A DNA stretch of 60,688 nt from Alphaproteobacteria bacterium UBA2964 (GCA_905182615.1 CAJJCG010000031.1:1-60688); one strand, 5' to 3'; shown: positions 1 to 54,356, counted from the first letter of the stretch. The notes: generated from the letters alone by a model not told the origin. Made by a program: numbers and translations.

Positions 1-1091
1 TCGTTCTGTAAGATAGCGTAAAGCGGTACGGTATAGAGCCCGCCGCAGACGGCAATTGCCGTCAGGTCAAACAGGATACGCCAGTTAGCCGGACTGTTGA
101 TAAAGTCTGTCGCAGTCATTAATCCGCTGGTCGGAGCGTGGAGGCCGCGCGACGCGAAATACAAATCGAGCGTAAAGCCAGTCAAAGCGAGGGCGCTCAA
201 TGGTACATATTTGGCGGATACTTCGCCTTTAAGAAGCCTGGTGCACCAGTAGGAACCGATCCCGATCCCGAGCGAGAATGTCACCATGAGTAGGGTCACG
301 ACGCTGGCATCACCGCCGAGCAGGATTTTGCTGAAATTGGGGAATTGCGACAGAAACGTTGCGCCAGTTAGCCAAAACCAGGAAATCCCCATGATCGAAA
401 GAAAGACCGAACGGGTTTCCCGAGCACGGGCGACCATGCGCCAGGTCTCCTGGAAGATATTGGTATTGATCTTCAGGTCAGGGTCCGCGGCGTCGGCTTT
501 GGGGATTGCCCGGCTCGCAACCCAGCCTAACAGAGCGACGATCAGCAAGCTGGCGGAGACGATGGAAATGCCCTGATCCGCCACAATCAGAAGTCCTCCG
601 GCGATGGTGCCGATCAAGATAGCGAGAAAGGTGCCGCCTTCGATCAGTGCGTTGCCGCCGATCAGCTCGTTTTCTTTCAAATGGCTCGGCAGAATACCGT
701 ACTTCAACGGGCCAAAGAACGCGGATTGGGTGCCCATCATGAACAGGACGGCGATTAGAAAGTAGGTGTTGGAGAGATAAAACCCGGCGACCGCTATCGC
801 CATAATGAAGATTTCTACGATCTTGATACGTTGGATTGATGCTGATTTCTCGAATTTGTCCGCTATCTGCCCGGCTGTCGCGGAGAACAGGAAGAACGGC
901 AGGATAAAAATGCCAGCCGCCATCGTGACCAGGATTTGCGGGCTGATGTCAGATGACTGCAGCAATCCGAAGGTGATCATCATGATCAGGGCCTGCTTCA
1001 TCAAATTGTCGTTCATTGCCCCGAGAAATTGGGTGACAAAAAGCGGCAGAAACCGCCTGGTCTTAAGAAGGTTCGGGGCTGTTTCGGTCAT
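1..1091 (-). CDS. MFS transporter, LplT-like (lysophospholipid-transporter type); C-terminus lies beyond the left edge
   Basis: Open minus-strand frame that runs off the left edge, so it is absent from the ORF track. My translation from ATG 1091-1089 reads MTETAPNLLKTRRFLPLFVTQFLGAMNDNLMKQAL...GQIADKFEKS...FGPLKYGILP...: successive hydrophobic helices resembling LplT-type MFS proteins. Confidence 0.6.
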   Translation of the reverse strand, partial: MTETAPNLLKTRRFLPLFVTQFLGAMNDNLMKQALIMMITFGLLQSSDISPQILVTMAAGIFILPFFLFSATAGQIADKFEKSASIQRIKIVEIFIMAIAVAGFYLSNTYFLIAVLFMMGTQSAFFGPLKYGILPSHLKENELIGGNALIEGGTFLAILIGTIAGGLLIVADQGISIVSASLLIVALLGWVASRAIPKADAADPDLKINTNIFQETWRMVARARETRSVFLSIMGISWFWLTGATFLSQFPNFSKILLGGDASVVTLLMVTFSLGIGIGSYWCTRLLKGEVSAKYVPLSALALTGFTLDLYFASRGLHAPTSGLMTATDFINSPANWRILFDLTAIAVCGGLYTVPLYAILQN

Positions 1092-1097
1092 GTTGGG

Positions 1098-1736
1098 TTA
1101 TTTAGACTTTGTGACGGCAGTTACGACATAAAGCGGATCAGAGTCACCGGGGTTTGGAGAAATATTTTCGAATTCGGGTGCTTCAAAGCCACCAGCTTCG
1201 TTGAAATAGTAGCCAACCAGCTTGGCGTGGCTGATATCGTCCATCTGGTGCCATAATGCGATGGCTTTGGTCGGGAAACATCTGTTGGAAAACGAGATGA
1301 TGCAGCGGCTGCCCGGGCGCAATACACGCGCTATTTCACCAAAAACGTGAACCGGGTGGATCAGATACTGGACCGAGACGGTGATCATACAGCCGTCGAA
1401 CGAGTTATCTGCAATCGGCAGGGTTGGGTTGGTACTTAGATTATGGACCAATCGTTCTGTAAGCTGTGCGTTGTCGTCAAGCTCGACCTGATTCATGCCG
1501 ATCCCGGTGACGCTTTTGTACTCAACATCCCAGGGCAGGTGGGACACGCAGCTCGACATGAGATCAAGCAGGTCGCCGCCAGCGGGCAGATGTTCACGGA
1601 AATAGTCGTTTAGCGCCGCGCAGGCATGGTCATCGATATGGGTGACCAGACGCGGCTGTTCGTAAAAAATTCCGTCATCGGACTCGTCGGTCCGCAGAAA
1701 GTGCTCCGGCTGGAGCTGATCACTGTCATTGGCCAT
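1098..1736 (-). CDS. class I SAM-dependent methyltransferase (Methyltransf_11-like)
   Basis: 212 aa. LLDLMSSCVSH, FDGCMITVSVQYL and VLRPGSRCIISF resemble the SAM-binding motif region. There is a 3-nt gap to the upstream TauD gene and a 6-nt gap to the downstream MFS gene, consistent with an operon. Confidence 0.6.
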   Translation of the reverse strand: MANDSDQLQPEHFLRTDESDDGIFYEQPRLVTHIDDHACAALNDYFREHLPAGGDLLDLMSSCVSHLPWDVEYKSVTGIGMNQVELDDNAQLTERLVHNLSTNPTLPIADNSFDGCMITVSVQYLIHPVHVFGEIARVLRPGSRCIISFSNRCFPTKAIALWHQMDDISHAKLVGYYFNEAGGFEAPEFENISPNPGDSDPLYVVTAVTKSK

Positions 1737-1739
1737 GTC

Positions 1740-2621
1740 TTATTGCACCGCCGCTTCCTGAAAGGGCGGTTCGCCGGCGAGGACTGGATGATCGTCTTCC
1801 AGAGTAATGCGCCGCAGCATCCGGCGTTCGTCGCTTGGAAAATCAGTGCGGGCATGAACTGAGCAGCGATTGTCCCACATCATGATATCGCCGGGGCGCC
1901 ATTGGTGCTCATAGACGAATTCCGGTTTGCTCTGATGCTCGAACAGGAAGTCGAGGAGCTCGCGGCTTTCTTCCGGGCTAACGCCGATGATTTCTTCGGT
2001 CATCAACTCACTCACGAAAAGCGCCGAACGTCCGGTTTCGGGGTGTTTGCGGAATACCGGGTGGGCGAAATGCGGATGCACACTCTTGTCATAGCTATCA
2101 GCCGTTTTGTGCTGATTGCCGTAATCGTATATATGCAGCGCTTTTTTGGTGCCGATGCGGTGCTTGATGTCTTCGGGCAGAGTTTCTGCCGCTGTATAGC
2201 TGTTGGAGAACAGAGTGTTGCCGCCGTGTGCGGGAATATCGATGGCGTATAGCAGTGTCGCCTTGAGAGGTTTTTCGTAATAGGGCGTATCGGAATGGAA
2301 CATCATTTCGCCATCCGGCAGAGTCCCGATCGGTTTGCCGTTTTCCCGCACGTTTGTAATTAACATGACGGCGTTACTGGTTTGTTGTTCGTGTTTGGTC
2401 GCGGTCGATTGAAGACGCACGGCGACTTTGCCAAAACTGGCGGCATAAGCGTGTTGTTGATCTAACGTCAGGTCCTGATCGCGAACCAGGACGATGATGT
2501 GGTTATGCCAAGCCTGTTTGATAGCTTTGGCGACATCCGGGGACAGGGGTTCCCGTAGGTCTACGCCGAGGACTTCCGCACCGATGGCTTCGCAGATTGG
2601 CCTAATTTCGAAATCAGTCAT
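1740..2621 (-). CDS. TauD/TfdA-family Fe(II)/2-oxoglutarate dioxygenase (paralogue 1)
   Basis: Track ORF 1740..2678 starts at a TTG. ATG 2621 gives MTDFEIRPI..GAEVLGVDL, a typical family N-terminus. FHSD (HxD) and WDNRCSVHAR motifs are present. Confidence 0.8.
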   Translation of the reverse strand: MTDFEIRPICEAIGAEVLGVDLREPLSPDVAKAIKQAWHNHIIVLVRDQDLTLDQQHAYAASFGKVAVRLQSTATKHEQQTSNAVMLITNVRENGKPIGTLPDGEMMFHSDTPYYEKPLKATLLYAIDIPAHGGNTLFSNSYTAAETLPEDIKHRIGTKKALHIYDYGNQHKTADSYDKSVHPHFAHPVFRKHPETGRSALFVSELMTEEIIGVSPEESRELLDFLFEHQSKPEFVYEHQWRPGDIMMWDNRCSVHARTDFPSDERRMLRRITLEDDHPVLAGEPPFQEAAVQ

Positions 2622-2766
2622 GACCGCACCTGTTTCTATAGTTTCTTGGATTGAACGCCATTGAAGGCGGGAACTCAAGAAGTCTGTGGTCCATTTGACG
2701 CCTTTAGGGACGGGGCGTAGAGTCTTTGAAAATTAGAGAATACAGGGCTTTGCGAAGGAGACGGTG

Positions 2767-3618
2767 ATGGAAGTGACGCGTCTATCCGATGCACTTGGGG
2801 CACATGTGTCCGGTGTGGATCTTGGCAATATTGATGCTGGAACCGCTGACAAGATTAGAGGGGCGTTCCACGAACATCAGATACTCCTGTTTCGCGGTCA
2901 GGATATTTCGGTGGAACAGCATATCGCCTTTAGTCAAAATTTCGGGCCGCTAGAGGTCCATATCTCGAAGGATAGCCTGCACGACGATCACGAGGAGATA
3001 CTGCTGGTCTCCAATAAGAAAGAAAACGGTGAGTATATCGGCGTCGAGAATGCCGGCGACTCCTGGCATTCGGACTTGTCCTATATGCCGGAACCCAGCC
3101 TGGGCTCACTTCTGTATGCGCTGGAAGTCTCCGAAATCGGCGGCGATACCGAATGGCTCAATATGTATGACGCCTATGACACGCTGCCGGAAGAAACCAA
3201 ACAGCGGATTGACGGCCTCAAGGCCCGTCACAGCTTTAATCGCTATAAAAACAACCGGATTGGTGTGCCGTCGCAGCGACAGGAAGGGGGCAAGGAGCGC
3301 TATGAGAAGCTCAGCCCGCCTGATGTCTTTCATCCCGTAGCACGGACGCACCCTGAGACAGACCGCAAAGCGCTTTACGTCTCACCAAGGTTCACGCTGG
3401 GTATCCTCGATGGATCAGAGGACGAGGCGCAGGATTTGCTCGATGAGTTAATTGAGCACGTGACGCAGCAGAAATTTGTTTATCGCCATGAATGGCAGGT
3501 TGGCGATCTCGTCATGTGGGACAATCGCTGTACGCTGCATTTGGCTTGCCGGGGGATACCCGAAGACCAGGTCCGGCATATGCATCGCACGACGATCTCC
3601 GGCGATGTGCCGTTTTAA
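2767..3618 (+). CDS. TauD/TfdA-family dioxygenase (paralogue 2)
   Basis: AAGGAGA at 2754-2760 favours ATG 2767 over GTG 2764. Motifs WHSDLSY (HxD), GGDTEW and WDNRCTLHLA. Confidence 0.85.
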   Translation: MEVTRLSDALGAHVSGVDLGNIDAGTADKIRGAFHEHQILLFRGQDISVEQHIAFSQNFGPLEVHISKDSLHDDHEEILLVSNKKENGEYIGVENAGDSWHSDLSYMPEPSLGSLLYALEVSEIGGDTEWLNMYDAYDTLPEETKQRIDGLKARHSFNRYKNNRIGVPSQRQEGGKERYEKLSPPDVFHPVARTHPETDRKALYVSPRFTLGILDGSEDEAQDLLDELIEHVTQQKFVYRHEWQVGDLVMWDNRCTLHLACRGIPEDQVRHMHRTTISGDVPF

Positions 3619-3624
3619 GGGAAG

Positions 3625-4482
3625 ATGAGCATGCAGGTTAATCCGCTTTCAGATGTTCTGGGTGCCGAGGTCATTGGCATTGATGTCGGAAACCTTGATG
3701 CGGCGACCTTCGACAAGGTTCATGACGCTTTTTTGGAGTACCATGTGCTGGTGTTTCGCGATCAGGACCTGTCGCCAGAAAGACAGGTGGATTTCGCTCA
3801 ACGGTTCGGTGAGCTGGATGTTCATATCCAGAAGGACAATAAACATTCGGGCCATGAGGCCATGCAAATCCTCTCGAATAAGAAGGTGAATGGGGAATAT
3901 ATCGGCTCGCCATCGGCAGGCGATGCCTGGCATTCGGACCTGTCCTACACGGATATTCCGACGCTGTGCACGATGCTCTATGCCATGGAAACCCCGGAAG
4001 TCGGTGGCGATACCGAATGGTCCAACATGTATCGTGCCTATGACATGTTAACCGAGGAGATGAAGCAGAAATTGGATGGGCTGCATGCCCGCCATACATT
4101 CAACCGATTTCGCAACCACCGCGTTGAAGTTCCCGAAATATATAAAGGAATGGGAAAAGAGCGCTACGCGGATATCGCGCCGCCGGACGCGGTTCACCCG
4201 CTTGTCCGTACCCACCCTGAAACCGGCCGCAAGGCTCTGTATCTTTCAGAACGTTTCACCATCGGTATCGAAGAATTAGAGGAAGATGAAGGCCAGGCGT
4301 TAATGGATGAATTGATCACGCATCAGAAACAACGCGACTTCATCTATCGCCATAAATGGAACCTGCATGATCTGACGATCTGGGATAATCGCTGCCTAAT
4401 CCATCTTGCCTGTGGCGGCGTGCCTGAAGGACAAATTCGACATATGCACCGCGTCATCGTGCGCGGCGATAAACCCTACTGA
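3625..4482 (+). CDS. TauD/TfdA-family dioxygenase (paralogue 3, tandem copy of paralogue 2)
   Basis: 285 aa, colinear with the preceding gene (WHSDLSY, GGDTEW, WDNRCLIHLA). 6-nt intergenic gap. Confidence 0.85.
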   Translation: MSMQVNPLSDVLGAEVIGIDVGNLDAATFDKVHDAFLEYHVLVFRDQDLSPERQVDFAQRFGELDVHIQKDNKHSGHEAMQILSNKKVNGEYIGSPSAGDAWHSDLSYTDIPTLCTMLYAMETPEVGGDTEWSNMYRAYDMLTEEMKQKLDGLHARHTFNRFRNHRVEVPEIYKGMGKERYADIAPPDAVHPLVRTHPETGRKALYLSERFTIGIEELEEDEGQALMDELITHQKQRDFIYRHKWNLHDLTIWDNRCLIHLACGGVPEGQIRHMHRVIVRGDKPY

Positions 4483-4501: not shown

Positions 4502-4933
4502 ATGAGAATGGCTGACGAGAGAGTTGCTTCAACAAAACCCCGTATTCGGCACACGATGCTTCGCGTGAAAGACCTCGACCGGTCGGTTAAATTCTATGCC
4601 GAGGTCATGGGTATGCAGGAATTCCGCCGTAATGCGAATGAAGGTGGCAAATACACCGTCGTTTTCATGGGGTTCGGTGACGAGAACTCTGATCCCGCGA
4701 TTGAGCTGACCTATAACTGGGGTCAAGACGATGGATATGAGCTGGGAACAGGCTTTGGCCATGTCGCCATCGGTTATCCGGATATCTATGAGGTCTGCAA
4801 AAAGGTTGAGGCATTTGGCATGGAAGTGCCGCGTCCACCGGGGCCGCTGAAACATTCGGGTCCCAACGGCCCGGTTATCGCCTTTATCCGCGACCCCGAC
4901 GGCTATTCCATCGAGCTTGGCCAAAGGGCGTAA
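4502..4933 (+). CDS. gloA: lactoylglutathione lyase (glyoxalase I), VOC superfamily
   Basis: 143 aa. HTMLRVKDLDRSVKFY ... IELTYNW ... GHVAI ... IAFIRDPDGYSIEL closely tracks GloA. Start could be ATG 4508. Confidence 0.75.
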   Translation: MRMADERVASTKPRIRHTMLRVKDLDRSVKFYAEVMGMQEFRRNANEGGKYTVVFMGFGDENSDPAIELTYNWGQDDGYELGTGFGHVAIGYPDIYEVCKKVEAFGMEVPRPPGPLKHSGPNGPVIAFIRDPDGYSIELGQRA

Positions 4934-4960
4934 CCGTCGGGAAATACTTGGGAGGACGCC

Positions 4961-6445
4961 ATGGCGGAGACGGACTCGGCAGCAGTCGTAAGGACGAGTA
5001 ACGAACATAAATTTGCGTATCAGGACCTGCGTGACTGGCTCGAGGAAGCTGAAAAGCTTGGCGAGCTGGAAAAGATTACCGGCGCGAGCTGGGAGGAAGA
5101 TATTGGGATGGCGGCGACCGTCGCCAAATACCGCGATGGCTCCCCGGCATTGTTGTTTGATGAAGTCCCTGGTTGCGCCAAGGGTTTCCGGGTGCTGTGC
5201 AATTTCTTCGGCGGTAAACGCAAAAATTTGACCCTTGGCTTTCCCGAGCACCTCAACAAGGTCGAGCTTTCTGAAGCCTGGGCCGGCATTTACTCGCATG
5301 AGCAAGGCGCTCTGATACCACCGGTCTATGTCGATGATGGTCCTGTATTCGAGAACATCATGACCGGCGACGATATCGATGTGCTCGCCTTCCCATCCCC
5401 AATGTGGCACGAGGATGATGGCGGCCGCTATATTGGCACCGGCACTTACAATGTGACACAAGACCCGGATACTGGCTGGTATAATCTCGGTTGCTACCGG
5501 GTCATGGTCATCGACGAAAAGACCGTCGCCTATAACTCTGCACCCGGCAAACACGGCCGTATTCATCACGAAAAGCACGTCGCCAAGGGCGAAAAGATGC
5601 CGGTCGTCATGGTCGTTGGTGGAGAACCGCTGGCATTCTTGCTGGGCGGTTATGAAGTGCCGTCAGGGGTGAGCGAGTTCGATGTGATGGGTGGCCTGCG
5701 GGGTAAGCCTATTGAACTGGTTCGTGGCAAGGTAACAGGGCTGCCATTCCCGGCTGATGCAGAGATTGTCATCGAGGGTTGGGTCGATCCAGAGGAAGTC
5801 GTTCCCGAAGGACCGTTTGGTGATTGGTGCGGCAGCTACACCGAACCGGGACGTGTGCGGCCGAAATGCGATGTCGCGGCGATCTATTACCGTAATGACC
5901 CAATTATCCTTGGTTTTCCGCCGCAGCATCTGCCGGATGAATTCTCACGGTTCAGGGCAATTACCCGTTCAGCCTTGATGAAACGGAATATCGAAGCCGC
6001 TGGGGTGCCAGATATTCATCAGGTCTGGTGCCATGAGGTGGGCGGCTCACGGATGTTGACCGGTGTATCCATCAAGGCGCGCTATCCTGGCCATGCGACG
6101 CAAGCCGGTCATATTGCCAGTCAGTGCCATGCTGGCGCCTATGCTGGCAAATGGGTCATTGTCACCGATGATGATATCGACGTGACCGACTTGGAAGAGC
6201 TCATCTGGGCGGCGCTGATGTGCTGCGATCCGGCGACGGAGATGGACATCATCAAGAATGCCTGGACATCGAACGCGGATCCCCGGCTTCATCCAGATGA
6301 CAAGGCGAAAGGAAATGTCACGAATTCCCGCTTGATTATTGACGCCACCAAGCCATTCCACTGGGCGGACCGGTTCCCGAAATCAACCAAACCCAAAGCA
6401 GAAGTATTGGAGGCTGCCCGTAAGAAATTCGGGCATCTCGCGTAA
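4961..6445 (+). CDS. UbiD-family (prFMN-dependent) decarboxylase, paralogue 1
   Basis: 494 aa. Signature PADAEIVIEGWVDP..EGPFGDWCGSYT, compared with AEIVLEG..EGPxGDHTGYY remembered from UbiD. Confidence 0.85.
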   Translation: MAETDSAAVVRTSNEHKFAYQDLRDWLEEAEKLGELEKITGASWEEDIGMAATVAKYRDGSPALLFDEVPGCAKGFRVLCNFFGGKRKNLTLGFPEHLNKVELSEAWAGIYSHEQGALIPPVYVDDGPVFENIMTGDDIDVLAFPSPMWHEDDGGRYIGTGTYNVTQDPDTGWYNLGCYRVMVIDEKTVAYNSAPGKHGRIHHEKHVAKGEKMPVVMVVGGEPLAFLLGGYEVPSGVSEFDVMGGLRGKPIELVRGKVTGLPFPADAEIVIEGWVDPEEVVPEGPFGDWCGSYTEPGRVRPKCDVAAIYYRNDPIILGFPPQHLPDEFSRFRAITRSALMKRNIEAAGVPDIHQVWCHEVGGSRMLTGVSIKARYPGHATQAGHIASQCHAGAYAGKWVIVTDDDIDVTDLEELIWAALMCCDPATEMDIIKNAWTSNADPRLHPDDKAKGNVTNSRLIIDATKPFHWADRFPKSTKPKAEVLEAARKKFGHLA

Positions 6446-6458
6446 GGACAAAACAAAT

Positions 6459-7949
6459 ATGGCCGAGACACCAACTGCTGATAGCGATCGCGATCATAAT
6501 TTGCGTCATACGCTGGTCTATCAGGACCTGCGTGACTGGATTGCTGAAGCGGATCGTCTTGGCGAACTGCGCGATGTGAAGGGCGCAAGTTGGGAACAGG
6601 ATATCGGGCTGGCCTGCACGGTCGTGAAGTATGACGAAGATGCACCGGTCTTGTTGTTTGACGACATCCCTGGTGTGAAGCCGGGGTTTCGGGTGCTGGC
6701 GAATTTCTTTGGCGGCAAACGCAAGAATATGACGCTCGGGTTTCCAACCAATCTGTCGAAGGTTGAGCTGTCGGACGCCTGGGCTAAGGTTTACTCACAT
6801 GATCAGCAATCGTTAATCCCGCCGGTGATCGTGGATGACGGGCCGGTCTTTGAAAATATTCAGATGGGTGACGAGGTCGATATCGATCAGTTTCCGTCGC
6901 CGATCTGGCATGAAGGCGATGGCGGGCGGTATATCGGGACCGGGAGTTATAATGTTACCGCCGACCCAGATAATGGTTGGCTCAATCTCGGTTGCTATCG
7001 GATTATGGCGAAAGATTCGAAGACCGTGGCCTTTAACACGGGGCTCGGCAAACACGGACGCATCCACTTTGAAAAGAACGCCGCGAAGGGCGAAAAAACA
7101 CCGGTCGTGATGGTGATCGGTGGCGATCCGATGGCGTTCATTATGGGTGGCTATGAAGTTCCGTCGGGGGTCAGCGAATATGACGTCCTCGGGGGGATGC
7201 GAGGCAAAGCGGTTGAACTGGTAAAGGGCAAGGTCACAGGGCTGCCGTTTCCAGCTGATGCTGAAATAGTCCTTGAAGGTTTTGTCGACCCAGAGGTTGA
7301 GGTGTCGGAAGGTCCATTTGGCGATTGGTGCGGCAGCTATACCGAGAGCGGTAGGCGGCGCCCGAAATGCGATATCGTCGCGGTTTATCACCGTAATGAT
7401 CCCATTATCCTCGGTTTTCCACCGCAAAGCTTGCCGGATGAATATTCGCGTTTTCGCTCGATAACCCGATCGGCTTTGTTGCGACATGCGGTCAATGCGG
7501 CTGGCGTTCCAGACGTTAAGGCGGTCTGGTGCCACGAGGTTGGTGGCTCGCACATGCTGACCGGCATTTCGATTACCCAGCGATATCCCGGTCATTCGAC
7601 ACAGGCGGCGCAGATCGCTTCGCAATGCCAGTCAGGCGCCTATGCGGGGAAATGGGTGATCGTGACCGACGACGATGTCGACGTTGCTGATCTTGAAGAG
7701 CTGATCTGGGCCGCGCTGATGCGCTGTGATCCGGTGAACGATATTGATTTCATCAAATATGGCTGGACGTCATTCGCTGACCCGCGGATTGACCCGGAAG
7801 AACGGGCCAAGGGAAACATTACAAATTCCCGGATGATCATCGATGCCTGCCGTCCGTTCCATTGGAAGGACGATTTCAACAAATCAACCAAGCCGTCAGA
7901 GGAATTGCTGACACTGGCGCGGGAGAAGTTCGGTTATCTACTCGACTAA
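6459..7949 (+). CDS. UbiD-family decarboxylase, paralogue 2 (tandem copy)
   Basis: Track ORF 6339..7949 overlaps the previous gene. ATG 6459 gives MAETPTAD..YQDLRDWIAEADRLGEL, colinear with the paralogue 1 N-terminus. PADAEIVLEGFVDP..EGPFGDWCGSYT present. Confidence 0.85.
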   Translation: MAETPTADSDRDHNLRHTLVYQDLRDWIAEADRLGELRDVKGASWEQDIGLACTVVKYDEDAPVLLFDDIPGVKPGFRVLANFFGGKRKNMTLGFPTNLSKVELSDAWAKVYSHDQQSLIPPVIVDDGPVFENIQMGDEVDIDQFPSPIWHEGDGGRYIGTGSYNVTADPDNGWLNLGCYRIMAKDSKTVAFNTGLGKHGRIHFEKNAAKGEKTPVVMVIGGDPMAFIMGGYEVPSGVSEYDVLGGMRGKAVELVKGKVTGLPFPADAEIVLEGFVDPEVEVSEGPFGDWCGSYTESGRRRPKCDIVAVYHRNDPIILGFPPQSLPDEYSRFRSITRSALLRHAVNAAGVPDVKAVWCHEVGGSHMLTGISITQRYPGHSTQAAQIASQCQSGAYAGKWVIVTDDDVDVADLEELIWAALMRCDPVNDIDFIKYGWTSFADPRIDPEERAKGNITNSRMIIDACRPFHWKDDFNKSTKPSEELLTLAREKFGYLLD

Positions 7950-7983
7950 CGGATAGAATTCCGCTGTAAGCAAGGAGATAGAA

Positions 7984-8745
7984 ATGGGACAGCTAGAGGG
8001 CAAAGTCGCCGTTGTGACTGGTGGGTCGCTGGGCATTGGCGCGGAATATTGCAAACGTCTGGCGGAAGAGGGCGCTAAAATCGTCATTGCCGACCTCGAA
8101 GATGCCAGCAGCGTCATTGGCGTAATCGAACAGGCTGGCGGCGAGGCCATCTATGTCGAGACTGATGTTGCCAATGAGGCCGCCAATATGAATATGGCGG
8201 CCAAGGCATTTGAAGCGTTTGGCCGGCTCGACATTCTGGTCGCGAATGCCGGGCTCTATACACATCTCCGGCGGGGGCCGTCTTTGGACGAAACCGTTGA
8301 TGAATGGGACGCCGTCTATAACGTCAATATCAAGGGCGTTTGGCTCGGCGCCAAAGCCTGCATCCCGGAAATGAAGAAAAACGGCTACGGCAAGATTATT
8401 AATATCGCCTCTACCGCAGCTTTTCAGGGCACGCCGGGGATCACGCGCTATGCGGCGTCCAAGGCCGCTGTCGTAGGCATTACGCGGTCGATGGCGCGGG
8501 AATATGGTGATGACGGTATCCGCATCAATGCGATCGCGCCGGGCCCGATTGAGACCGAAACCGGCAAGCAGTATGAAACCGACGAAAGTATCAAACGTCG
8601 GGTGGCGAGCGGCAAAAAACGCGCACTGGGTCGCAATGGTATGCCTGCGGACGTTCTTGGGTTATGTGTGTTTCTATCGTCGCCGAAGAGCGATTTTATG
8701 AGTGGTCAAACGGTCGTCGTCGATGGCGGCGGCACGATGTGGTGA
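7984..8745 (+). CDS. SDR-family oxidoreductase (FabG-like), copy 1
   Basis: 253 aa. TGGSLGIG Rossmann motif, NAG, YAASKAA (YxxxK). Confidence 0.85.
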   Translation: MGQLEGKVAVVTGGSLGIGAEYCKRLAEEGAKIVIADLEDASSVIGVIEQAGGEAIYVETDVANEAANMNMAAKAFEAFGRLDILVANAGLYTHLRRGPSLDETVDEWDAVYNVNIKGVWLGAKACIPEMKKNGYGKIINIASTAAFQGTPGITRYAASKAAVVGITRSMAREYGDDGIRINAIAPGPIETETGKQYETDESIKRRVASGKKRALGRNGMPADVLGLCVFLSSPKSDFMSGQTVVVDGGGTMW

Positions 8746-8760
8746 GAAAGGGTTAAGTTG

Positions 8761-9522
8761 ATGGCGAGACTGGACGGACGAGTAGCGATTGTAACGGGAG
8801 GCGCGCGGAGTATTGGAGCAGCCTTCGCCAAGGGTTTGGCAGCAGAAGGTGCCAAAATCGTTATCGCTGATCTCGACGCGGCAGAGGAAACGCTGGGCAT
8901 CATCAAGCAAGCCGGTGGTGAGGCGATGGCCGTCAAAACCGATGTCACCAATGAAAGCAGTTGCGAAGAAATGGTCGCCAAAGCCGTTGAGGCCTATGGC
9001 AAGCTCGATATTCTCGTCGCCAATGCCGGGCTGTGGGTCCATCTCGAACGCCAGGAAGCCACGGAAATCGATATCGATACCTGGGAAAAGGTGATGTCGG
9101 TCAATGTGAAGGGTGTCTGGCTGTCGGCAAAGGCAGCGATCCCGGAAATGGTCAAGAACAACTATGGCAAGATCATCACCGTGGCCTCGACCCGGGCGAT
9201 GAAGGGCGGCGCTGGAATGTTGCACTATGACACCAGTAAAGGGGCCGTCATCGGCCTAACCCGGTCACTGGCCCGCGAATACGGGCCGTCAGGCATTTGC
9301 GCCAATATCATTGCACCGGGCGCGACGGATACTGAGATCAGTCAGTCCTTGGCGACTGACACCCAAAAAGAACGCCGCGTGGCTAGTGCGCAGGCGCGCG
9401 CGATCAAACGTGCGGAAGAGCCTGATGATCTGGTTGGGGCCTGTGTTCATTTGGCATCACCCGAAAGCGATTTCATGTCGGGTCAGACACTGGTCGTCGA
9501 TGGCGGCGCTATCGTCTGGTAA
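8761..9522 (+). CDS. SDR-family oxidoreductase, copy 2 (tandem)
   Basis: TTG 8758 is immediately followed by ATG 8761. TGGARSIG, NAG, YDTSKGA. Confidence 0.85.
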   Translation: MARLDGRVAIVTGGARSIGAAFAKGLAAEGAKIVIADLDAAEETLGIIKQAGGEAMAVKTDVTNESSCEEMVAKAVEAYGKLDILVANAGLWVHLERQEATEIDIDTWEKVMSVNVKGVWLSAKAAIPEMVKNNYGKIITVASTRAMKGGAGMLHYDTSKGAVIGLTRSLAREYGPSGICANIIAPGATDTEISQSLATDTQKERRVASAQARAIKRAEEPDDLVGACVHLASPESDFMSGQTLVVDGGAIVW

Positions 9523-9524
9523 TA

Positions 9525-10367
9525 CTAGGCGACTAAACTGTCGCCGCTGACTTTACTGCGGCGCAGGCGGCGGTCATCGCCCAGTTCAAAATGGGTGCGG
9601 GCGTGGGTGACTGCCAAATTGTCCCAGATAATGAAATCACCAATTGTCCATTCATGTTCATAGACGAATTGTCGTTGTTCGGCGTGATCGAAGATCGGGT
9701 CGAGGATTGCGGCGCTTTCCGCGATGGTTAGCCCTTCGAGCTGACAGGTCATCAGACGGTTGACGAATAGCGCCTCGCGCCCAGTCTGTGGATGGGTGAC
9801 CACGCAGGGCTGCCAGGCCTTTTCAATGTTTTCCAGATTATCGAGATCGGGTTTCTCAATCGTTGCGTAGTCATAAACGCTGAGGGCTTTCTTGCCGCGG
9901 ATTGTCTGTTTTAGGTCCTCGGACATGGTTTCCCATGCCTGATACATATTGCACCACATCGTATTGCCGCCGGTCTTCGGAATGGCGAGGGCGCAGAGCA
10001 TCGTGAATTTATCCGGCGCGTCGGTGTAGCAGGTGTCGTGGTGAAACCACATCTCGCCATCGGGGATGACGCCGGTGGGCTCGCCGTTTGCATCGCGAAT
10101 ATTGCTGACATAGGCGATCCCCGGTGTGTCAGAGGAACTGGCAGGGACGACATAATCATCCGGTAGTTTGCGTTTTCGAACCGGGCCGAGAGCAAGCGTG
10201 AAAGCCAGCTGCTGCTTGGCGTTGAAAGTCTGGTTGGGGAAAATCGCGACCTGATGCTCATGGATAACCGTACGAATCTCAGCCGCGAGAGCCTCATCCG
10301 GCGTATCGCGGAAATCGAGCCCGGTGATGCGGGCTCCGAGTGGGGCGTCCAGTGGTGTTACTTTCAT
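9525..10367 (-). CDS. TauD/TfdA-family dioxygenase (paralogue 4)
   Basis: The track start at 10493 would overlap the divergent SDR gene. ATG 10367 gives MKVTPLDAPLGARITGLDF. WFHHDTCY (HxD), GGNTMW, WDNLAVTHAR. Confidence 0.8.
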   Translation of the reverse strand: MKVTPLDAPLGARITGLDFRDTPDEALAAEIRTVIHEHQVAIFPNQTFNAKQQLAFTLALGPVRKRKLPDDYVVPASSSDTPGIAYVSNIRDANGEPTGVIPDGEMWFHHDTCYTDAPDKFTMLCALAIPKTGGNTMWCNMYQAWETMSEDLKQTIRGKKALSVYDYATIEKPDLDNLENIEKAWQPCVVTHPQTGREALFVNRLMTCQLEGLTIAESAAILDPIFDHAEQRQFVYEHEWTIGDFIIWDNLAVTHARTHFELGDDRRLRRSKVSGDSLVA

Positions 10368-10461
10368 GGCCCTATAATAGCAGATGATCCGCCGAAGGGG
10401 AGTTGAAACCGAGGCTTTCACCGTCCACACTGCCGCCAAACAAATACAGGCTATGGAGTTT

Positions 10462-11223
10462 ATGATGGGTAGAGTAGAGGGACGTGTCGCCATTGTGACC
10501 GGTGCTGCTCAAGGTTTGGGCGCAACTTACGCACGGGCTTTGGCCGCAGAAGGCGCTAAGGTCGTGATCGCGGATCGCGATAGCGGTGCGGCTGTGGTCG
10601 AAGAGATCAGGGCCGCCGGTGGCGAAGCGATTGATGTCCCGACCGATGTCCGCGAAGAGGCTGCTACCCTTGAAATGGTCGCCAAGGCTGTCGAGGCCTT
10701 CGGTAAACTCGATATCATGGTCAATAACGCCGCTATTTTCACGGCTGTTGAACGCAAAGGCTTTGATGAAATCTCCGTGGACGAATGGGATTTGATGCAT
10801 GCGGTCAATGTTCGCGGCACCTGGCTTTGTTGTCGGGCGGCCGTCGCTGAGATGCGCAAACACCAATACGGCAAGATCATCAATATCTCGACCAGCCGGA
10901 TTTTCCAGGGCGTGCCGTTTTTTCTGCACTATGACTCGACAAAAGGCGCGGTTCTCGCGATTACCCGCTCGCTGTGCAAGGAAGTCGGTGACGATGGCAT
11001 TCGGGTTAATTGCATCGCGCCTGGCTCCACGATGAGCGAGAACGTCCGCAAACGGACCAATTGGCAGGGCAGTGGTGCCAAGGCTCAGCTCGCGAACCGT
11101 ATGATTAAACGCGAACAGCTGCCCGAAGATCTTGTCGGCGCTGTGCTCTTTCTGTCATCCGCAGAAAGTGACTTTGTCACTGGCCAGACCATGCTGATCG
11201 ATGGTGGCGTCTCCACGCACTGA
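10462..11223 (+). CDS. SDR-family oxidoreductase, copy 3
   Basis: The track ORF starts at 10384. ATG 10462 gives MMGRVEGRVAIVTGAAQGLG, colinear with the other SDRs. YDSTKGA (YxxxK). Confidence 0.8.
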   Translation: MMGRVEGRVAIVTGAAQGLGATYARALAAEGAKVVIADRDSGAAVVEEIRAAGGEAIDVPTDVREEAATLEMVAKAVEAFGKLDIMVNNAAIFTAVERKGFDEISVDEWDLMHAVNVRGTWLCCRAAVAEMRKHQYGKIINISTSRIFQGVPFFLHYDSTKGAVLAITRSLCKEVGDDGIRVNCIAPGSTMSENVRKRTNWQGSGAKAQLANRMIKREQLPEDLVGAVLFLSSAESDFVTGQTMLIDGGVSTH

Positions 11224-11337
11224 ATAAGCTCGCTTTCCATACTGAGTATACCCGCGCTGGGTTGGCCTACAGGCCCTGTTGCGCTATAGCTGCGCCCAAC
11301 TTTTGATACTGACTGATTTCTAAAAAGGACTAGACCC

Positions 11338-12981
11338 GTGACTGAACGCACCCCCGCACGTAGTTACCCCGATTTACATGACCATTTGAAAGCCCTCGAC
11401 GAGGCTGGGCTGTTGGTAACGGTCGATCGTGAAATCAACAAGGACACCGAGATGCACCCGTTGGTGCGCTGGCAGTTCCGCGGCGGGATTGAAGAAAAAG
11501 ACCGCAAAGCCTTCTTGTTCACCAATGTCGTGGACTCTAAGGGTAATAAGTTCGATATGCCGGTGGCTGTTGGTGTGTTGGCGGCAAACCGCGAAATCTA
11601 TGCCATGGGCATGGGTTGTCCAGTGGAAGAAGTGCAGGATCGCTGGGCGCAGGCAATTGCCAACCCGATTCCGCCGAAAGAGATTTCTAGTGAAGAAGCG
11701 CCGTGCCACGAGGTCATCATCGAGGGCGACGATTTGGATAAGCCCGGCAATGCGCTGGATGCTATCCCGGTGCCGATCTCGACACCTGGCTGGGATGTCG
11801 GGCCGGTCGCCACGCTAACCCAATATGTCACCAGAGACCCCGATACCGGCCTGACCAATATGGGTAACTACCGTGCCCAGATTAAAGCGCCCCGCCGGAT
11901 GGGGATGAACCCGTCTTTGGAGCTGCGTCCTGGTATCTATGTTCACTGGGAAAAAATGAAGAAGCGAGGTGAGAAATTACCGGCCGCTGTCGTGCTTGGT
12001 GCTCCTTCGTGCGTGACATTCACTGCGGCGCAGAAACTACCTGAAAATCTTGAAGAAATTACCGTTGCAGGTGGGCTCGTTGGCTCACCGATTAACGTTG
12101 TAAAAGCCCGTACGGTTGACCTGATGGTTCCCGCTGAAGCAGAGATCGTTGTTGAGGGTTATATCAACACGGAGATGCTTGAGCCTGAAGCGCCGTTTGG
12201 TGAAAGCCACGGCCATGTGAACTTGCAGGAATTCAACGCCTTTATGGACGTCACCTGCATCACAAGGCGGTCGAAGCCGATTATGACTTCGATCATTTCG
12301 CAGGTCACACCGTCTGAATCTTCCTGCATCAAGCAGGTCGCCTACGAAACCATCTTTATGAACCACATGCGCGACGCGCTGGGCATCAAGGGCGTTCAAC
12401 GGGTGGCACTGCATGAGCCTTTGACCAACATCCGCAAGCTTGTGGTTCTGGTCTGTGATCGTGACATGCCAGCCACCGAAGTTTGGCGAGCCCTTTATGG
12501 TGCGGCAACGCTGCTGCGCGCCGGTGGCAAATTCGTCATCGCCGTCAATGACGATATTGATCCGTCCAATGCAGATGCGCTGTTCTGGGCGATGGCGTAT
12601 CGCTGCAATCCGATCCTCGATATGCAGGTTTTACCGCATCGGGATCAGGGCCATGGCCCGCGCTCCAAGCGTAATAACGGTGAAGATGGTTCGGTTCTCT
12701 ATGACGCAACGCTGAAAGAGAACTTCCCGCCGATTTCGCTGCCAAAACGCGAATTCATGGAAAACGCCGCCGAGATCTGGGACGAGATTGGCCTGCCGAC
12801 GCTCAAGCCGCAGGAACCCTGGTTTGGTTATTCGCTTGGCGAGTGGGATGAAGAATTCGACGAGGCCGCAAAAATGGCAACGGATAGCGAATACTGGGCC
12901 TATGGAGAACGTATTGCCCAACGCCGCCGCTCGGATGTCGAGATGAACACGGAAGTCCGAGACGTCGACGAGACGAAGTAG
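11338..12981 (+). CDS. UbiD-family decarboxylase, paralogue 3 (divergent, longer)
   Basis: 547 aa with a GTG start. PAEAEIVVEGYINTEMLEPEAPFGESHGH. N-terminus YPDLHDHLKALDEAGLL is typical of the family. Confidence 0.8.
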   Translation: MTERTPARSYPDLHDHLKALDEAGLLVTVDREINKDTEMHPLVRWQFRGGIEEKDRKAFLFTNVVDSKGNKFDMPVAVGVLAANREIYAMGMGCPVEEVQDRWAQAIANPIPPKEISSEEAPCHEVIIEGDDLDKPGNALDAIPVPISTPGWDVGPVATLTQYVTRDPDTGLTNMGNYRAQIKAPRRMGMNPSLELRPGIYVHWEKMKKRGEKLPAAVVLGAPSCVTFTAAQKLPENLEEITVAGGLVGSPINVVKARTVDLMVPAEAEIVVEGYINTEMLEPEAPFGESHGHVNLQEFNAFMDVTCITRRSKPIMTSIISQVTPSESSCIKQVAYETIFMNHMRDALGIKGVQRVALHEPLTNIRKLVVLVCDRDMPATEVWRALYGAATLLRAGGKFVIAVNDDIDPSNADALFWAMAYRCNPILDMQVLPHRDQGHGPRSKRNNGEDGSVLYDATLKENFPPISLPKREFMENAAEIWDEIGLPTLKPQEPWFGYSLGEWDEEFDEAAKMATDSEYWAYGERIAQRRRSDVEMNTEVRDVDETK

Positions 12982-13085: not shown

Positions 13086-13943
13086 ATGTCTCGACGTTCG
13101 ACCTTCAGAAAATTTTCGCGCCGGTTTGCGCTGGTATTGTTGTGCGCGCCTTTGCTGACGGGGTTTTCATTTGAAGCCCTGTTTGCACCTCAGTCTTACC
13201 TGCTTGAAAAATGGGCGGCGCATGACGCGGCATCGAAAGCGATTATCGATCACAGTGAATGGGACAGGCTTCTTAAGCTCTATGTTGTAAAAAAATCGGA
13301 TGGTATCACCCGGTTTGCCTATAAGCGGGTATCCAAATTGGATCGTCGTCGGTTGGACGGCTATATCCGCGACATATCGAAGACAAAAATCGGCAAGTTC
13401 AATCGCGATGAGCAGTTCGCCTTTTGGGTAAACCTCTATAACGCCCGAACGGTGAAGGTGATCCTCGATCACCCTGATGCAGAGTCGATCCGAGATATTG
13501 ATATTTCACCGGGCTTCTTTGCGGATGGGCCCTGGGACAAAAAGATGATCGTGGTTGATGAGATCATCTTGTCTTTGAATGATATCGAGCACGGCATTCT
13601 ACGGCCGATCTATCAAGATCCGTATATTCATTACGCGGTGAATTGCGCGTCAATAAGCTGTCCAAATCTGCTGCCAGTTGCCTTCTCGGCAAAGAACTAC
13701 GGAACATTGCTCGACAAGGCGGCGCGCGCTTACATCAATCACCCGCGTGGTGTGAGGGTTGAGCAGGGGCAGATTAAGGTCTCGAGCATCTATGTCTGGT
13801 TTGCAGAGGATTTCGGCGGTGAGGCAGGCGTGCTTGAACACATAAAAAAATACACTGATCGCGAGCGTGTCCGGGTCATCCTACACAGCCGGAAATCAAT
13901 AGCCGGTCACGGGTATGACTGGACGCTTAATGACGACGGCTAG
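13086..13943 (+). CDS. DUF547 domain protein, probably exported
   Basis: 285 aa with an N-terminal hydrophobic segment. FWVNLYNA and HYAVNCASISCPNL motifs as remembered for DUF547. Confidence 0.6.
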   Translation: MSRRSTFRKFSRRFALVLLCAPLLTGFSFEALFAPQSYLLEKWAAHDAASKAIIDHSEWDRLLKLYVVKKSDGITRFAYKRVSKLDRRRLDGYIRDISKTKIGKFNRDEQFAFWVNLYNARTVKVILDHPDAESIRDIDISPGFFADGPWDKKMIVVDEIILSLNDIEHGILRPIYQDPYIHYAVNCASISCPNLLPVAFSAKNYGTLLDKAARAYINHPRGVRVEQGQIKVSSIYVWFAEDFGGEAGVLEHIKKYTDRERVRVILHSRKSIAGHGYDWTLNDDG

Positions 13944-32483: not shown

Positions 32484-34820
32484 ATGGTTGAGAAGTTTGG
32501 TGTTGGGCAGCCGGTCCCGCGTTTTGAGGACCCCCGTCTTTTAACGGGTGGTGGCCGCTATATGGATGATAACCAAATGCCAAATGAGACTCGTGCCTAT
32601 ATTCTGCGCTCGCCTTACGCCCACGCTAAAATCCTGTCGATGGATTTGACTGCCGCCAAAGCGGCACCGGGTGTTGTCGAGATTTTGACCGGTCAGGATT
32701 ACATTAATGATGGGCATGGCGCGCTTAAATGCTCGCCGGTCCAGAAGCAGCGCGATGGCTCACGGATGTTTGAGCCCGATAACCCGCCGCTGATCGATAA
32801 TGAAGTCAAAATGGTTGGCGATTACGTCGCGTTAATTATCGCCGAGACCATCGATCAGGCGAAAGATGCCGCCGAGCTGATCGAAGTGGATTACGAGGCA
32901 CTGCCATCAGTGTCTTTACCCTTTCCAGCATCGCAAGCTGATGCGCCAAAAGTCTGGGCCGATCACGACAGCAATATTTGCTTTGTTCACACAGTGGGCG
33001 ACAAATCGGCAACCGATGCAGCTTTTGATCGGGCCGCGACGATTGCCGGTGGCGAACTACCGGTAAACCGTAGCGCCCATGTCACGATGGAGCCGCGCGG
33101 TGCCATTGGCGATTACAACCAGGGCTCGGGGATGCTGACGCTGTATACCGGCGTGCATTATCCTTGGCAGTTGCGCGAAGAACTTGCGAGCAAAATTTTC
33201 GATATGCCGGAAACCAAAGTCCGCGTTGTTGCAGGTGATATGGGTGGCAGCTTTGGTCTGCGTGGCGGAACCTATCGCGAGCATGTGCTGGTGTCCTGGG
33301 CTGCCTTGCGCATCGGGCGCCCGGTCAAATGGGTCTGCGAACGCTCCGAAGGATTTATGAGCGATCATCAGGGTCGTGACGTTTACTGGGATGCTGAAAT
33401 TGCATTGGATGAAAACGGAAAATTCCTTGCTGTCCGTGCCACCAGCTTTGCTAATGTTGGTGCTTATCTGGCGAGTAAAGGCACGCTGCCGCCAATTGCC
33501 AACCTTGGCACCATGGCAGGGACTTACGATATTCCAGCGATGTATGTTGATGTCTCGGCGGTTTTTACCAATACCAACCCTATTTGCCCATTCCGCGGCA
33601 ATGGCCGTCCGGAAGCATCCTATGTCATCGAGCGGTTGATCGATCTCGCAGCAGATGAAACCGGCATAGATCCGGCTGAACTGCGGCGTATCAACCAAAT
33701 TCCTCCAGAAGCCATCCCATATAAAACGGCGCTTACCTTTACCTATGACAGTGGTAATTTTGGCGACAATCTCGAGAAGACTTTGAAGATGGTCGATTAT
33801 GACGGTTTTCCCGCGCGCCGCGAACAATCCCGAGCCAACGGTATGCTTCGAGGCATTGGTATTTCTAACAGTATCGAACGCGCCGCTGCAGCCAGTATTG
33901 AGCAGGTAGAAATCCGGTTTAATCCGGGTGGTACGGCAACGCTTTTTGCAGGCACCAGCCAGCAAGGGCAGGGGCATGAGACAATCTATAAGCAAATTAT
34001 GTGTGAGAAGCTTGGCCTTGACCCCTATGAGGTCGGTTTCAATGAAGGCGATACCTCTATCCTCGCTTTTGGCGGTGGTACGGGTGGGTCTCGTTCGGCG
34101 ACTCTTGGCGGTAGTGCAGTTCTGGGCTGCTCTGACAAGATCATTGAAAAGGCGACTAAGTTGGCGGCACATCTTCTGGAAGCGGCGGATGCCGATATTG
34201 AGTTCGCCGACGGCACTTTCGTCGTCGCCGGAACCGACAAGACAATTAGTCTGACCGAAGTCGCGCAGGCCAGTTACAAGCCAGGTCGTACGCCTGTTGA
34301 TATGGAACCTGGTCTTGGATCGGTCTTCACCTATGAAGCCGCCAAAGAGAATTTCCCCAATGGTTGTCATGCTTGTGAGATGGAGATCGACCCCGAAACT
34401 GGCGTGACCGAGATCGTCAGCTACAAGGTTGTTGATGATGTTGGCACGGTGCTGAACCCGCTGACACTCAAAGGGCAGATCATGGGTGGTGTTGCTCATG
34501 GTATCGGGCAGGCCTTACTCGAGGAAATTCAATTTGATGCCGATAGTGGCCAGCTTATTACCGGCTCCTTTATGGATTACACGATGCCGCGCGCTGACAA
34601 TATGAGCTACATCGATGTTGTGAGTAACCCATGCCCGACAGCCACAAACCCTCTGGGCTGCAAAGGGGCAGGCGAGGCTGGAACCGTTGGTGCCGTGCCG
34701 TGTGTCATGAACTCGGTTGTCGATGCACTATCAGAGTATGGCATTCGTCATATCGACATGCCGGCAACGCCTGCCAAAATTTGGGCAGCCATCGAAGCAG
34801 CAAAGAAAGCGGCGGCGTAA
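32484..34820 (+). CDS. xanthine dehydrogenase/aldehyde oxidase family molybdopterin-binding large subunit (CoxL/XdhB-like)
   Basis: 778 aa. N-terminal RFEDPRLLTGGGRYMDD and overall size and architecture are typical of this family. Confidence 0.8.
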   Translation: MVEKFGVGQPVPRFEDPRLLTGGGRYMDDNQMPNETRAYILRSPYAHAKILSMDLTAAKAAPGVVEILTGQDYINDGHGALKCSPVQKQRDGSRMFEPDNPPLIDNEVKMVGDYVALIIAETIDQAKDAAELIEVDYEALPSVSLPFPASQADAPKVWADHDSNICFVHTVGDKSATDAAFDRAATIAGGELPVNRSAHVTMEPRGAIGDYNQGSGMLTLYTGVHYPWQLREELASKIFDMPETKVRVVAGDMGGSFGLRGGTYREHVLVSWAALRIGRPVKWVCERSEGFMSDHQGRDVYWDAEIALDENGKFLAVRATSFANVGAYLASKGTLPPIANLGTMAGTYDIPAMYVDVSAVFTNTNPICPFRGNGRPEASYVIERLIDLAADETGIDPAELRRINQIPPEAIPYKTALTFTYDSGNFGDNLEKTLKMVDYDGFPARREQSRANGMLRGIGISNSIERAAAASIEQVEIRFNPGGTATLFAGTSQQGQGHETIYKQIMCEKLGLDPYEVGFNEGDTSILAFGGGTGGSRSATLGGSAVLGCSDKIIEKATKLAAHLLEAADADIEFADGTFVVAGTDKTISLTEVAQASYKPGRTPVDMEPGLGSVFTYEAAKENFPNGCHACEMEIDPETGVTEIVSYKVVDDVGTVLNPLTLKGQIMGGVAHGIGQALLEEIQFDADSGQLITGSFMDYTMPRADNMSYIDVVSNPCPTATNPLGCKGAGEAGTVGAVPCVMNSVVDALSEYGIRHIDMPATPAKIWAAIEAAKKAAA

Positions 34821-43869: not shown

Positions 43870-43973
43870 TTTCGATATTTTTAAAGTCGGAGTTTATCTG
43901 ATCGTTCAGCGGGCTCGTTCAGGATGGAAGTTGCCGGAAGCAGAAGCGGTCATGGAAATAGGAGACCTTTAGA

Positions 43974-51769: not shown

Positions 51770-51937
51770 AGAATTAGGTTTCCTATATCATAATTTAAAG
51801 ACATCACATCACAGGGGAAGAGCTCCGGCAACTGCGTAGACTGCCAAAGTGAATGCAGTTAGGCCGCTGTCGTTGATCGACCTCCTCATTCAGGTATGAT
51901 CCTGCCCAATACGGCAGAAAATAGAACAAAGATAGTT

Positions 51938-54351: not shown

Positions 54352-54356
54352 GCGAG

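Follow-up and report, generated by a model that had tools for sequence, protein, structure and literature searches.

A probable two-unit UbiD–TauD–SDR gene island in a marine alphaproteobacterium, likely to encode decarboxylases that receive their prenylated flavin cofactor in trans

Here we have analysed a stretch of 60,688 nt from Alphaproteobacteria bacterium UBA2964 (GCA_905182615.1, CAJJCG010000031.1:1-60688; hereafter the window), in which three UbiD-family genes, UbiD1, UbiD2 and UbiD3, lie among genes for short-chain dehydrogenases (SDRs) and TauD-type Fe(II)/2-oxoglutarate dioxygenases. We consider it likely that these genes form a two-unit aerobic catabolic island of an uncultured marine bacterium, whose UbiD proteins are probably active and receive their cofactor, prenylated flavin mononucleotide (prFMN), in trans. 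The data presented here document the genes of the locus with their conservation, selection and transcription, the clades to which the UbiDs belong and the supply of UbiX, and the function that fits is most likely the aerobic catabolic decarboxylation of (hetero)aromatic or unsaturated acids. The window UbiDs are new members of a known family; their interest lies in the scale of the expansion to which they belong, in a UbiD3 clade with an altered metal site and no studied member found, and in a family-specific coupling to TauD genes.

In the arrangement that we propose, a first unit on the plus strand would run from TauD1 (2764..3618; Pfam TauD, 239 bits), which opens it, through TauD2 (3625..4482; 228 bits; 6 nt past TauD1, iron triad intact), a GloA-like glyoxalase I/VOC protein (4502..4933; TIGR00068, 132 bits at a cut-off of 120), UbiD1 (4961..6445; 494 aa), UbiD2 (6459..7949; 496 aa) and the classical SDR1 (7984..8745; Pfam adh_short, TGxxxGxG and YxxxK intact) to SDR2 (8758..9522; SDR motifs intact), which closes it. 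The gaps between these genes span only 6-34 nt, and they form one unit. The second unit, also on the plus strand, would consist of SDR3 (10465..11223; recognised by domain match and public gene call) and its partner UbiD3 (11338..12981; 547 aa, with a C-terminal extension), possibly joined by a DUF547 protein (13086..13943, plus strand; Pfam DUF547) whose gene lies downstream of UbiD3, is kept in only part of the relatives and is of uncertain membership. Between the two units, on the minus strand, stands TauD3 (9525..10367; 280 aa; Pfam TauD), which converges on SDR2 and diverges from SDR3. In public gene calls for identical contigs, TauD3 and SDR3 are trimmed to divergent neighbours with a 97-nt gap, so the two genes do not overlap; this part of the locus has spacers of 97 nt and 114 nt and one convergent junction.

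This layout agrees in most respects with an original prediction made from the window alone, which had described three genuine, non-housekeeping UbiD-family genes. All three proteins score above the Pfam gathering thresholds for UbiD_N, UbiD and UbiD_C at the coordinates first given for them. UbiD1 and UbiD2 are, as proposed, tandem paralogues (71% identical) with a 13-nt spacer, the UbiD2 ATG at 6459 following the UbiD1 TAA stop, and UbiD3 is the longer, divergent member placed 3.4 kb away (3.39 kb from the UbiD2 end to the UbiD3 start). The order SDR-SDR-(TauD, opposite strand)-SDR between UbiD2 and UbiD3 was likewise described correctly; left out of the described context were three more TauD genes, the GloA-like gene, a methyltransferase gene and an MFS transporter gene upstream.

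UbiD1 and UbiD2 carry the motifs NLGCYR and EGPFGDWCGSY, and UbiD3 carries NMGNYR and EAPFGESHGH. In all three, N-x-G-x-Y-R retains its Asn and Arg, and both the Glu that binds the metal and the E-x-P-F-G-[D/E] loop are in place. The Mn2+ ligands Asn, His (in GKHG) and Glu (in SEF/SEY) are retained in UbiD1 and UbiD2, and in UbiD1 the N, R, H, E, E and D residues are all present. The catalytic acid is Asp in UbiD1 and UbiD2 and Glu in UbiD3; E. coli UbiD also uses Asp, and the catalytic residues of Fdc1 are R173, E277 and E282. Further reference residues for the acid loop are E278 of HudA (PMC7976604) and E269 of PhdA (PMC10850782). The strings that follow this position had been quoted exactly in the original prediction as departures from the usual UbiD pattern, and they give no sign of lost function: DWCGSY (UbiD1 and UbiD2) and ESHGH (UbiD3) are invariant across every orthologue. 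They are a clade signature, and because HudA Y279, directly after the acid residue, lines the substrate pocket (PMC7976604), they most likely mark substrate specificity, not decay.

The UbiD tree, built from the 34 paralogues of this genome with PhdA, HudA and HmfF as the only outside references, delivers the family placement that had been called for. UbiD1 and UbiD2 are sisters within an 11-row clade that holds PhdA (PDB 7PDA; support 100/99), and UbiD3 falls in a separate 7-row clade (100/100), apart from HmfF. PhdA is also the closest solved structure to UbiD1 and UbiD2 (314 bits, 38-39% identity), followed by HudA at 182 bits. The PhdA of Mycolicibacterium fortuitum, a phenazine-1-carboxylic acid decarboxylase (PMC10850782), shares with UbiD1 and UbiD2 the three-domain layout and the N/R/H/E/E core, but its catalytic acid is Glu269 where theirs is Asp, and its loop reads EWTGYF where theirs reads DWCGSY. 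The surroundings differ as well: PhdA is accompanied by PhdB (UbiX) and PhdC (a maturase), whereas UbiD1 and UbiD2 are adjoined by TauD, GloA and SDR genes, with no UbiX and no PhdC-type family among the window open reading frames (ORFs) scanned.

The tandem arrangement invites a different reading, in which the two proteins would serve as alpha and beta subunits in a PpcA/PpcB-like phenylphosphate carboxylase that adds CO2 to a phenolic compound. Indeed, the best NCBIfam model for both proteins is the phenylphosphate carboxylase beta subunit, and the two genes, in tandem with their 13-nt spacer, occur together on one RNA contig. The scores, however, stay below the cut-offs (268-270 bits against 469 for beta; 161-166 bits against 565 for alpha), and no small Ppc subunit, HAD phosphatase or phenol kinase was found among the window ORFs scanned. 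Furthermore, the pair is nested in the tree among single-gene paralogues and PhdA, the neighbouring TauD enzymes require O2, and many relatives lack UbiD2 while keeping the rest of the locus. The dispensable UbiD2, the sub-cut-off scores and the lack of partner genes among the ORFs scanned led us to reject the heteromer, which we regard as highly improbable. UbiD2 is seen only in closer relatives, and several otherwise intact loci carry UbiD1 alone; its distribution thus marks it as a later tandem duplicate of UbiD1, not an obligate partner. This recent copy has an active-site loop nearly identical to that of UbiD1.

The original prediction had treated the lack of ubiX as a puzzle. No UbiX is encoded in the window, as it stated, but the puzzle dissolves on the scale of the genome, a 2.45-Mb metagenome-assembled genome (MAG) of 123 contigs that is 73% complete. 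Genome-wide, Flavoprotein-family (PF02441) matches occur only on contigs C16, C58 and C92, and the search for ubiX elsewhere found two stand-alone genes, at C16:129913-130458 and C58:20584-21129 (242-248 bits on NF004685, cut-off 188), 86% identical to one another. Their surroundings look like housekeeping ones, with folE and a fasciclin gene beside one copy and an L,D-transpeptidase and a transglutaminase-like gene beside the other. One or two ubiX genes were present in 25 of the 26 genomes searched (this one and 25 relatives). With two ubiX genes elsewhere in the genome and one or two in nearly all relatives searched, it is ordinary, and nothing anomalous, for this locus to have no ubiX of its own. 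About 35 UbiD genes, mostly without a local ubiX, must be served by the two stand-alone genes, so that one or two UbiX prenyltransferases would supply prFMN in trans to the entire UbiD complement. Since a single ubiX is present in a complete genome from this genus, the second copy seen here may be a genuine paralogue or may reflect a bin of mixed populations.

The ubiquinone-type ubiD is likewise a separate gene, located on contig C45 (694 bits on NF008175, cut-off 788), and its loop, GEGPYGDHTGYYN, shows an Asp acid residue. On the same model UbiD1, UbiD2 and UbiD3 reach 153, 129 and 134 bits, respectively, a range of 129-153 bits that lies far under the cut-off of 788; these low scores and the separate C45 orthologue rule out a housekeeping identity for the window genes. 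The ubiquinone-biosynthesis UbiD and UbiX of the E. coli type belong to the same protein family and resemble the present case in that ubiD and ubiX are unlinked.

Conservation of the locus extends well beyond this MAG. Its closest matches in public records come from marine MAGs that bear the labels Alphaproteobacteria, Rhodospirillaceae or Rhodospirillales bacterium, among them CB4_SCM.57 from the Canada Basin (97% protein identity), which is classed in GTDB Rhodospirillales_A; an Arctic Ocean study that makes no mention of UbiD has named such clades as degraders of humic aromatic matter (PMC9789639). The gene order TauD-TauD-GloA-UbiD1-(UbiD2)-SDR-SDR-TauD(-)-SDR-UbiD3 recurs in about 20 related marine species, down to about 75% UbiD1 identity, with the GloA-like gene always directly upstream of UbiD1. 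In a single pairwise comparison with the orthologous locus L019, the ratio of nonsynonymous to synonymous substitution rates (dN/dS) is 0.016-0.053 for all ten genes (0.02 for UbiD2), with dS near saturation; the locus is under strong purifying selection. At the DNA level it is near-unchanged in at least 20 seawater and ice metagenomes. Contigs from four seawater metatranscriptomes cover most of its genes, some without any mismatch, and bridge the GloA/UbiD1 junction (4645-5601, 0 mismatches), the UbiD1/UbiD2 junction (5816-6554) and the SDR3/UbiD3 junction (10491-11408).

The recurring gene order bears on whether the two units belong together. In a competing account, which we regard as possible and clearly less probable than a joint island, the TauD1-to-SDR2 operon, TauD3 alone and SDR3-UbiD3 are independent modules acting on unrelated substrates. 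They are separate transcription units, with the two spacers and the convergent junction described above; UbiD1 and UbiD3 are only 31% identical and fall in different clades; TauD3 or SDR1 is absent from some relatives; and the closest SDR3-UbiD3 paralogue module stands alone on contig C117 with two TauD genes of its own. Against this, the two units remain adjacent throughout the roughly 20 species and across the full range of protein identity over which the gene order is kept, and we continue to favour a single island.

The enzymes that accompany the UbiDs have intact catalytic motifs: the HxD...H iron triad and the Arg in the TauD proteins, TGxxxGxG and YxxxK in the SDRs. TauD3 is nearest among solved structures to RdpA, an aryloxyalkanoate dioxygenase (137 bits, compared with 87 bits for the taurine dioxygenase TauD), and TauD1 is equally near TauD and RdpA, the (R)-phenoxypropionate dioxygenase. 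Across the genome, a TauD gene lies within 6 kb of 13 of the 34 UbiD genes, where 4.2 +/- 1.8 would be expected and none of 2000 permutations reached 13. The complete genome from this genus gives a comparable picture, 13 of its 37 UbiD genes having a TauD gene within 8 kb (5.5 expected, p ~0.002). Neighbours are shared among tandem UbiD genes, and the counts are therefore not wholly independent of one another. Literature searches returned no described UbiD-TauD link, nor a described UbiD expansion in marine Alphaproteobacteria.

UbiD activity, the direction of decarboxylation, the order of steps and the class of substrate are parts of the scheme that we infer. Judged by their residues, UbiD1, UbiD2 and UbiD3 are probably active prFMN-dependent non-oxidative decarboxylases. 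UbiD1, a PhdA-clade prFMN-type enzyme, would act on a free (hetero)aromatic acid; the TauDs, through hydroxylation or ether/alkyl cleavage, and the SDRs, through oxidation of an alcohol to a ketone, would prepare or finish the UbiD substrates. For UbiD3, an SDR and dioxygenases of the TauD type would here take the place of the molybdenum (Mo) hydroxylase partner of its clade. The likely source of such substrates is dissolved organic matter that is carboxyl-rich or humic. A biosynthetic role, in which the cluster decarboxylates a natural product as TtnD/SmdK or ScoE-type TauD enzymes do, has in its favour that UbiD enzymes are known in polyketide tailoring and that TauD1 and TauD2 weakly match the ScoE and PtlD models. 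No polyketide synthase, non-ribosomal peptide synthetase, carrier protein or terpene gene was found among the window ORFs scanned, however; each genome has dozens of copies of the families concerned, which fits catabolic breadth, and relatives are described as aromatic degraders (PMC9789639). We therefore give a biosynthetic cluster hardly any weight.

Several observations weigh against a catabolic island of active UbiDs. As was noticed at the outset, there is no obvious aromatic-ring pathway gene: the locus and the window ORFs scanned contain no gene of the ring-cleavage or benzoyl-CoA type, no coenzyme A (CoA) ligase and no regulator, and with no substrate-specific gene found the pathway is not anchored to known chemistry. 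Close homologues of the window UbiDs lack biochemical characterisation. The association with TauD is not general, given that a complete genome from a different family of this order has a TauD gene near 0 of its 35 UbiD genes, and by permutation SDR genes, as well as thiamine diphosphate (ThDP) enzyme and OCD genes, are not nearer to UbiD genes than chance. The Logan RNA contigs do not show the strand, and carry-over of DNA may contribute to them. Finally, a check of the metal ligands that found all of them in UbiD1 and UbiD2 came out differently for UbiD3: in both HMMER and profile-profile alignments the canonical Mn-ligand His column is Gly throughout the UbiD3 clade, so cofactor binding by UbiD3 may differ or be weaker.

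This replaced ligand could suggest that one or more of the three UbiDs is catalytically dead, serving for instance as a prFMN carrier or regulator, and core residues are indeed lacking in three further paralogues of this genome. Yet the alignment has UbiD3 retaining the Asn and Glu metal ligands, and its clade has a conserved His-Trp/Tyr four residues past the Gly column, after a small insertion, which places a conserved His one helical turn away. Moreover, all three UbiDs keep the catalytic Arg, Glu and acid residue, the active-site loop is invariant among orthologues, and dN/dS is ~0.02. A dead paralogue among the three is thus very unlikely in our view, and probable activity in all three remains our preferred interpretation.

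The relatives of UbiD3 add a further perspective. No studied member was found for its clade. HmfF, the 2,5-furandicarboxylate decarboxylase (PDB 6H6V/6H6X), is the best-scoring solved structure (142 bits, 31% identity), but an HmfF-type identity is not supported, as the tree groups HmfF with a paralogue on contig C93 and no hmf genes lie nearby. The nearest paralogue within the genome, on C117, is 60% identical to UbiD3 and has the gene order UbiD-SDR-TauD-TauD, its SDR being 61% identical to SDR3. Three other UbiD3-clade paralogues adjoin large subunits of XDH-family Mo hydroxylases. Among cultured organisms, UbiD3 is 51-54% identical to large-plasmid genes of Paraburkholderia, Sinorhizobium and Neorhizobium, where the UbiD gene is flanked by two XDH-family Mo subunits with FAD, 2Fe-2S and CoxG partners and followed by a GntR regulator, a TctC-type binding protein and a ThDP enzyme, and in Neorhizobium also by an annotated UbiX. 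The window UbiD3 has neither the Mo hydroxylase nor the UbiX of these clusters beside it, but an SDR and TauD genes. This Mo-hydroxylase arrangement is conserved between a Neorhizobium petrolearium plasmid (L055) and Sinorhizobium meliloti plasmid pA (L057), and looks like an unstudied heteroaromatic-acid pathway in cultured rhizobia. A Mo dehydrogenase precedes a UbiD-type xanthine-8-carboxylate decarboxylase in the lumazine pathway of Cupriavidus LA-1 (PMC12391406), so that a Mo hydroxylase/UbiD pairing can decarboxylate an N-heteroaromatic acid.

For UbiD1, the top match in a plasmid collection, the only collection of cultured organisms searched, is WP_011255029 (EBN1_RS22170; L054:8923-10437) in the o-phthalate island on plasmid 2 of Aromatoleum aromaticum EbN1, with 58% identity over 97% of the protein. 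Like the window genes, it is an extra UbiD without a ubiX directly beside it, but it is placed between two UbiX-UbiD pairs, behind an ABC transporter. The EbN1 island, which encodes an anaerobic pathway, comprises those two pairs and the transporter together with idi and CoA transferases, none of which are found in the window. A literature search found no study of the function of WP_011255029.

Not visible from the window alone is that this cluster is one instance of an order-wide UbiD expansion. The genome has 34 UbiD-family genes, alongside 38-45 TauD, 48 SDR, 15 ThDP-enzyme and 11 OCD-family genes. Among 40 relatives sampled, UbiD counts are 26-41 per genome within the genus and family of this MAG and in three more families of its order; the exceptions are one further family with 9-14 and one 71%-complete MAG of the same genus with 9. 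In an even sample of 300 other Alphaproteobacteria, any UbiD was present in 137, mostly as one copy. The largest first-look count outside the order was 23, compared with 30-39 within it; scored matches in this class-wide census extend to at most nine per genome, and counts outside the order are first-look candidates. The TauD expansion is narrower: near-complete genomes of the window's own family hold 45-58 copies as opposed to 9-21 in other families of the order, confining it within the order to that family. The UbiD complement also includes three very divergent UbiD-like paralogues that form a clade of their own (C24:2002-3567, C40:12822-14402 and C53:1150-2739), which have an insertion in the catalytic loop (e.g. 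ESGQQGKHHFHPEW) and lack both the first Glu and the Asn; they may have no catalytic role or perform different chemistry.

A broader reading, which we offer as tentative and would not ourselves rate above its alternatives, joins these observations into three parts. A marine order with 26-41 UbiDs per genome (~1% of genes), fed by one or two UbiX enzymes, might use them as a carboxyl-stripping toolkit on carboxyl-rich, humic or N-heteroaromatic dissolved organic matter, the present locus being a conserved module expressed in situ; the UbiDs might be tied physically and functionally to the expanded TauDs in the window's family; and the UbiD3 clade might represent a new subfamily whose metal site has been rebuilt. 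Interest in UbiD enzymes comes from their use as reversible (de)carboxylation catalysts, and to our knowledge only a handful have been characterised. This lineage, widespread in seawater, offers dozens of intact, mutually diverged paralogues per genome, covered by metatranscriptome contigs and including a ten-member PhdA-related clade and the seven-member clade with no studied member found. If the expansion does serve to decarboxylate carboxyl-rich dissolved organic matter, it would link specific enzymes to a section of the marine carbon cycle that is still poorly understood; Sinorhizobium, Neorhizobium and Aromatoleum EbN1 could stand in as cultured proxies in genetic work.

Beyond the two units, a leftward unit on the minus strand begins with TauD0 (1740..2621; Pfam TauD, 234 bits; HxD...H...R motif intact), which is divergent from TauD1, and continues through a SAM-dependent methyltransferase (1098..1736; Pfam Methyltransf_11) to an MFS transporter gene (3..1091; Pfam MFS_1), the last of the unit, whose 3' end lies beyond the window edge and which adjoins the locus in relatives too. 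No Rfam family, such as the FMN riboswitch, was detected anywhere in the window, and scans for promoters and terminators gave fewer matches than shuffled sequence or no more. Elsewhere the window encodes seven ThDP enzymes, two amidohydrolase_2 proteins, a Mo hydroxylase, FMN hydroxy-acid oxidases and sets of PrpD, phosphoenolpyruvate (PEP)-mutase-family and citrate-synthase genes; these remaining genes are compatible with a general carboxylate-processing role. Two pairs of PrpD/MmgE and PEP-mutase/isocitrate-lyase-family genes (42568-44798 and 51896-55487), the second followed by a citrate-synthase-family gene, look like a duplication of sets akin to the methylcitrate cycle that would handle carboxylic acids with branches or substituents. 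A molybdopterin large subunit of the XDH family, 778 aa long (32484-34820), has no FAD or 2Fe-2S subunit gene nearby among the surrounding ORFs of at least 220 aa that were scanned; similar orphan Mo large subunits adjoin UbiD3-clade paralogues on contigs C14, C18 and C59. The window holds six TauD/TfdA copies in all, and both GloA-like genes of the genome (4502-4933 in the window and the C18:33455 region) adjoin TauD genes.

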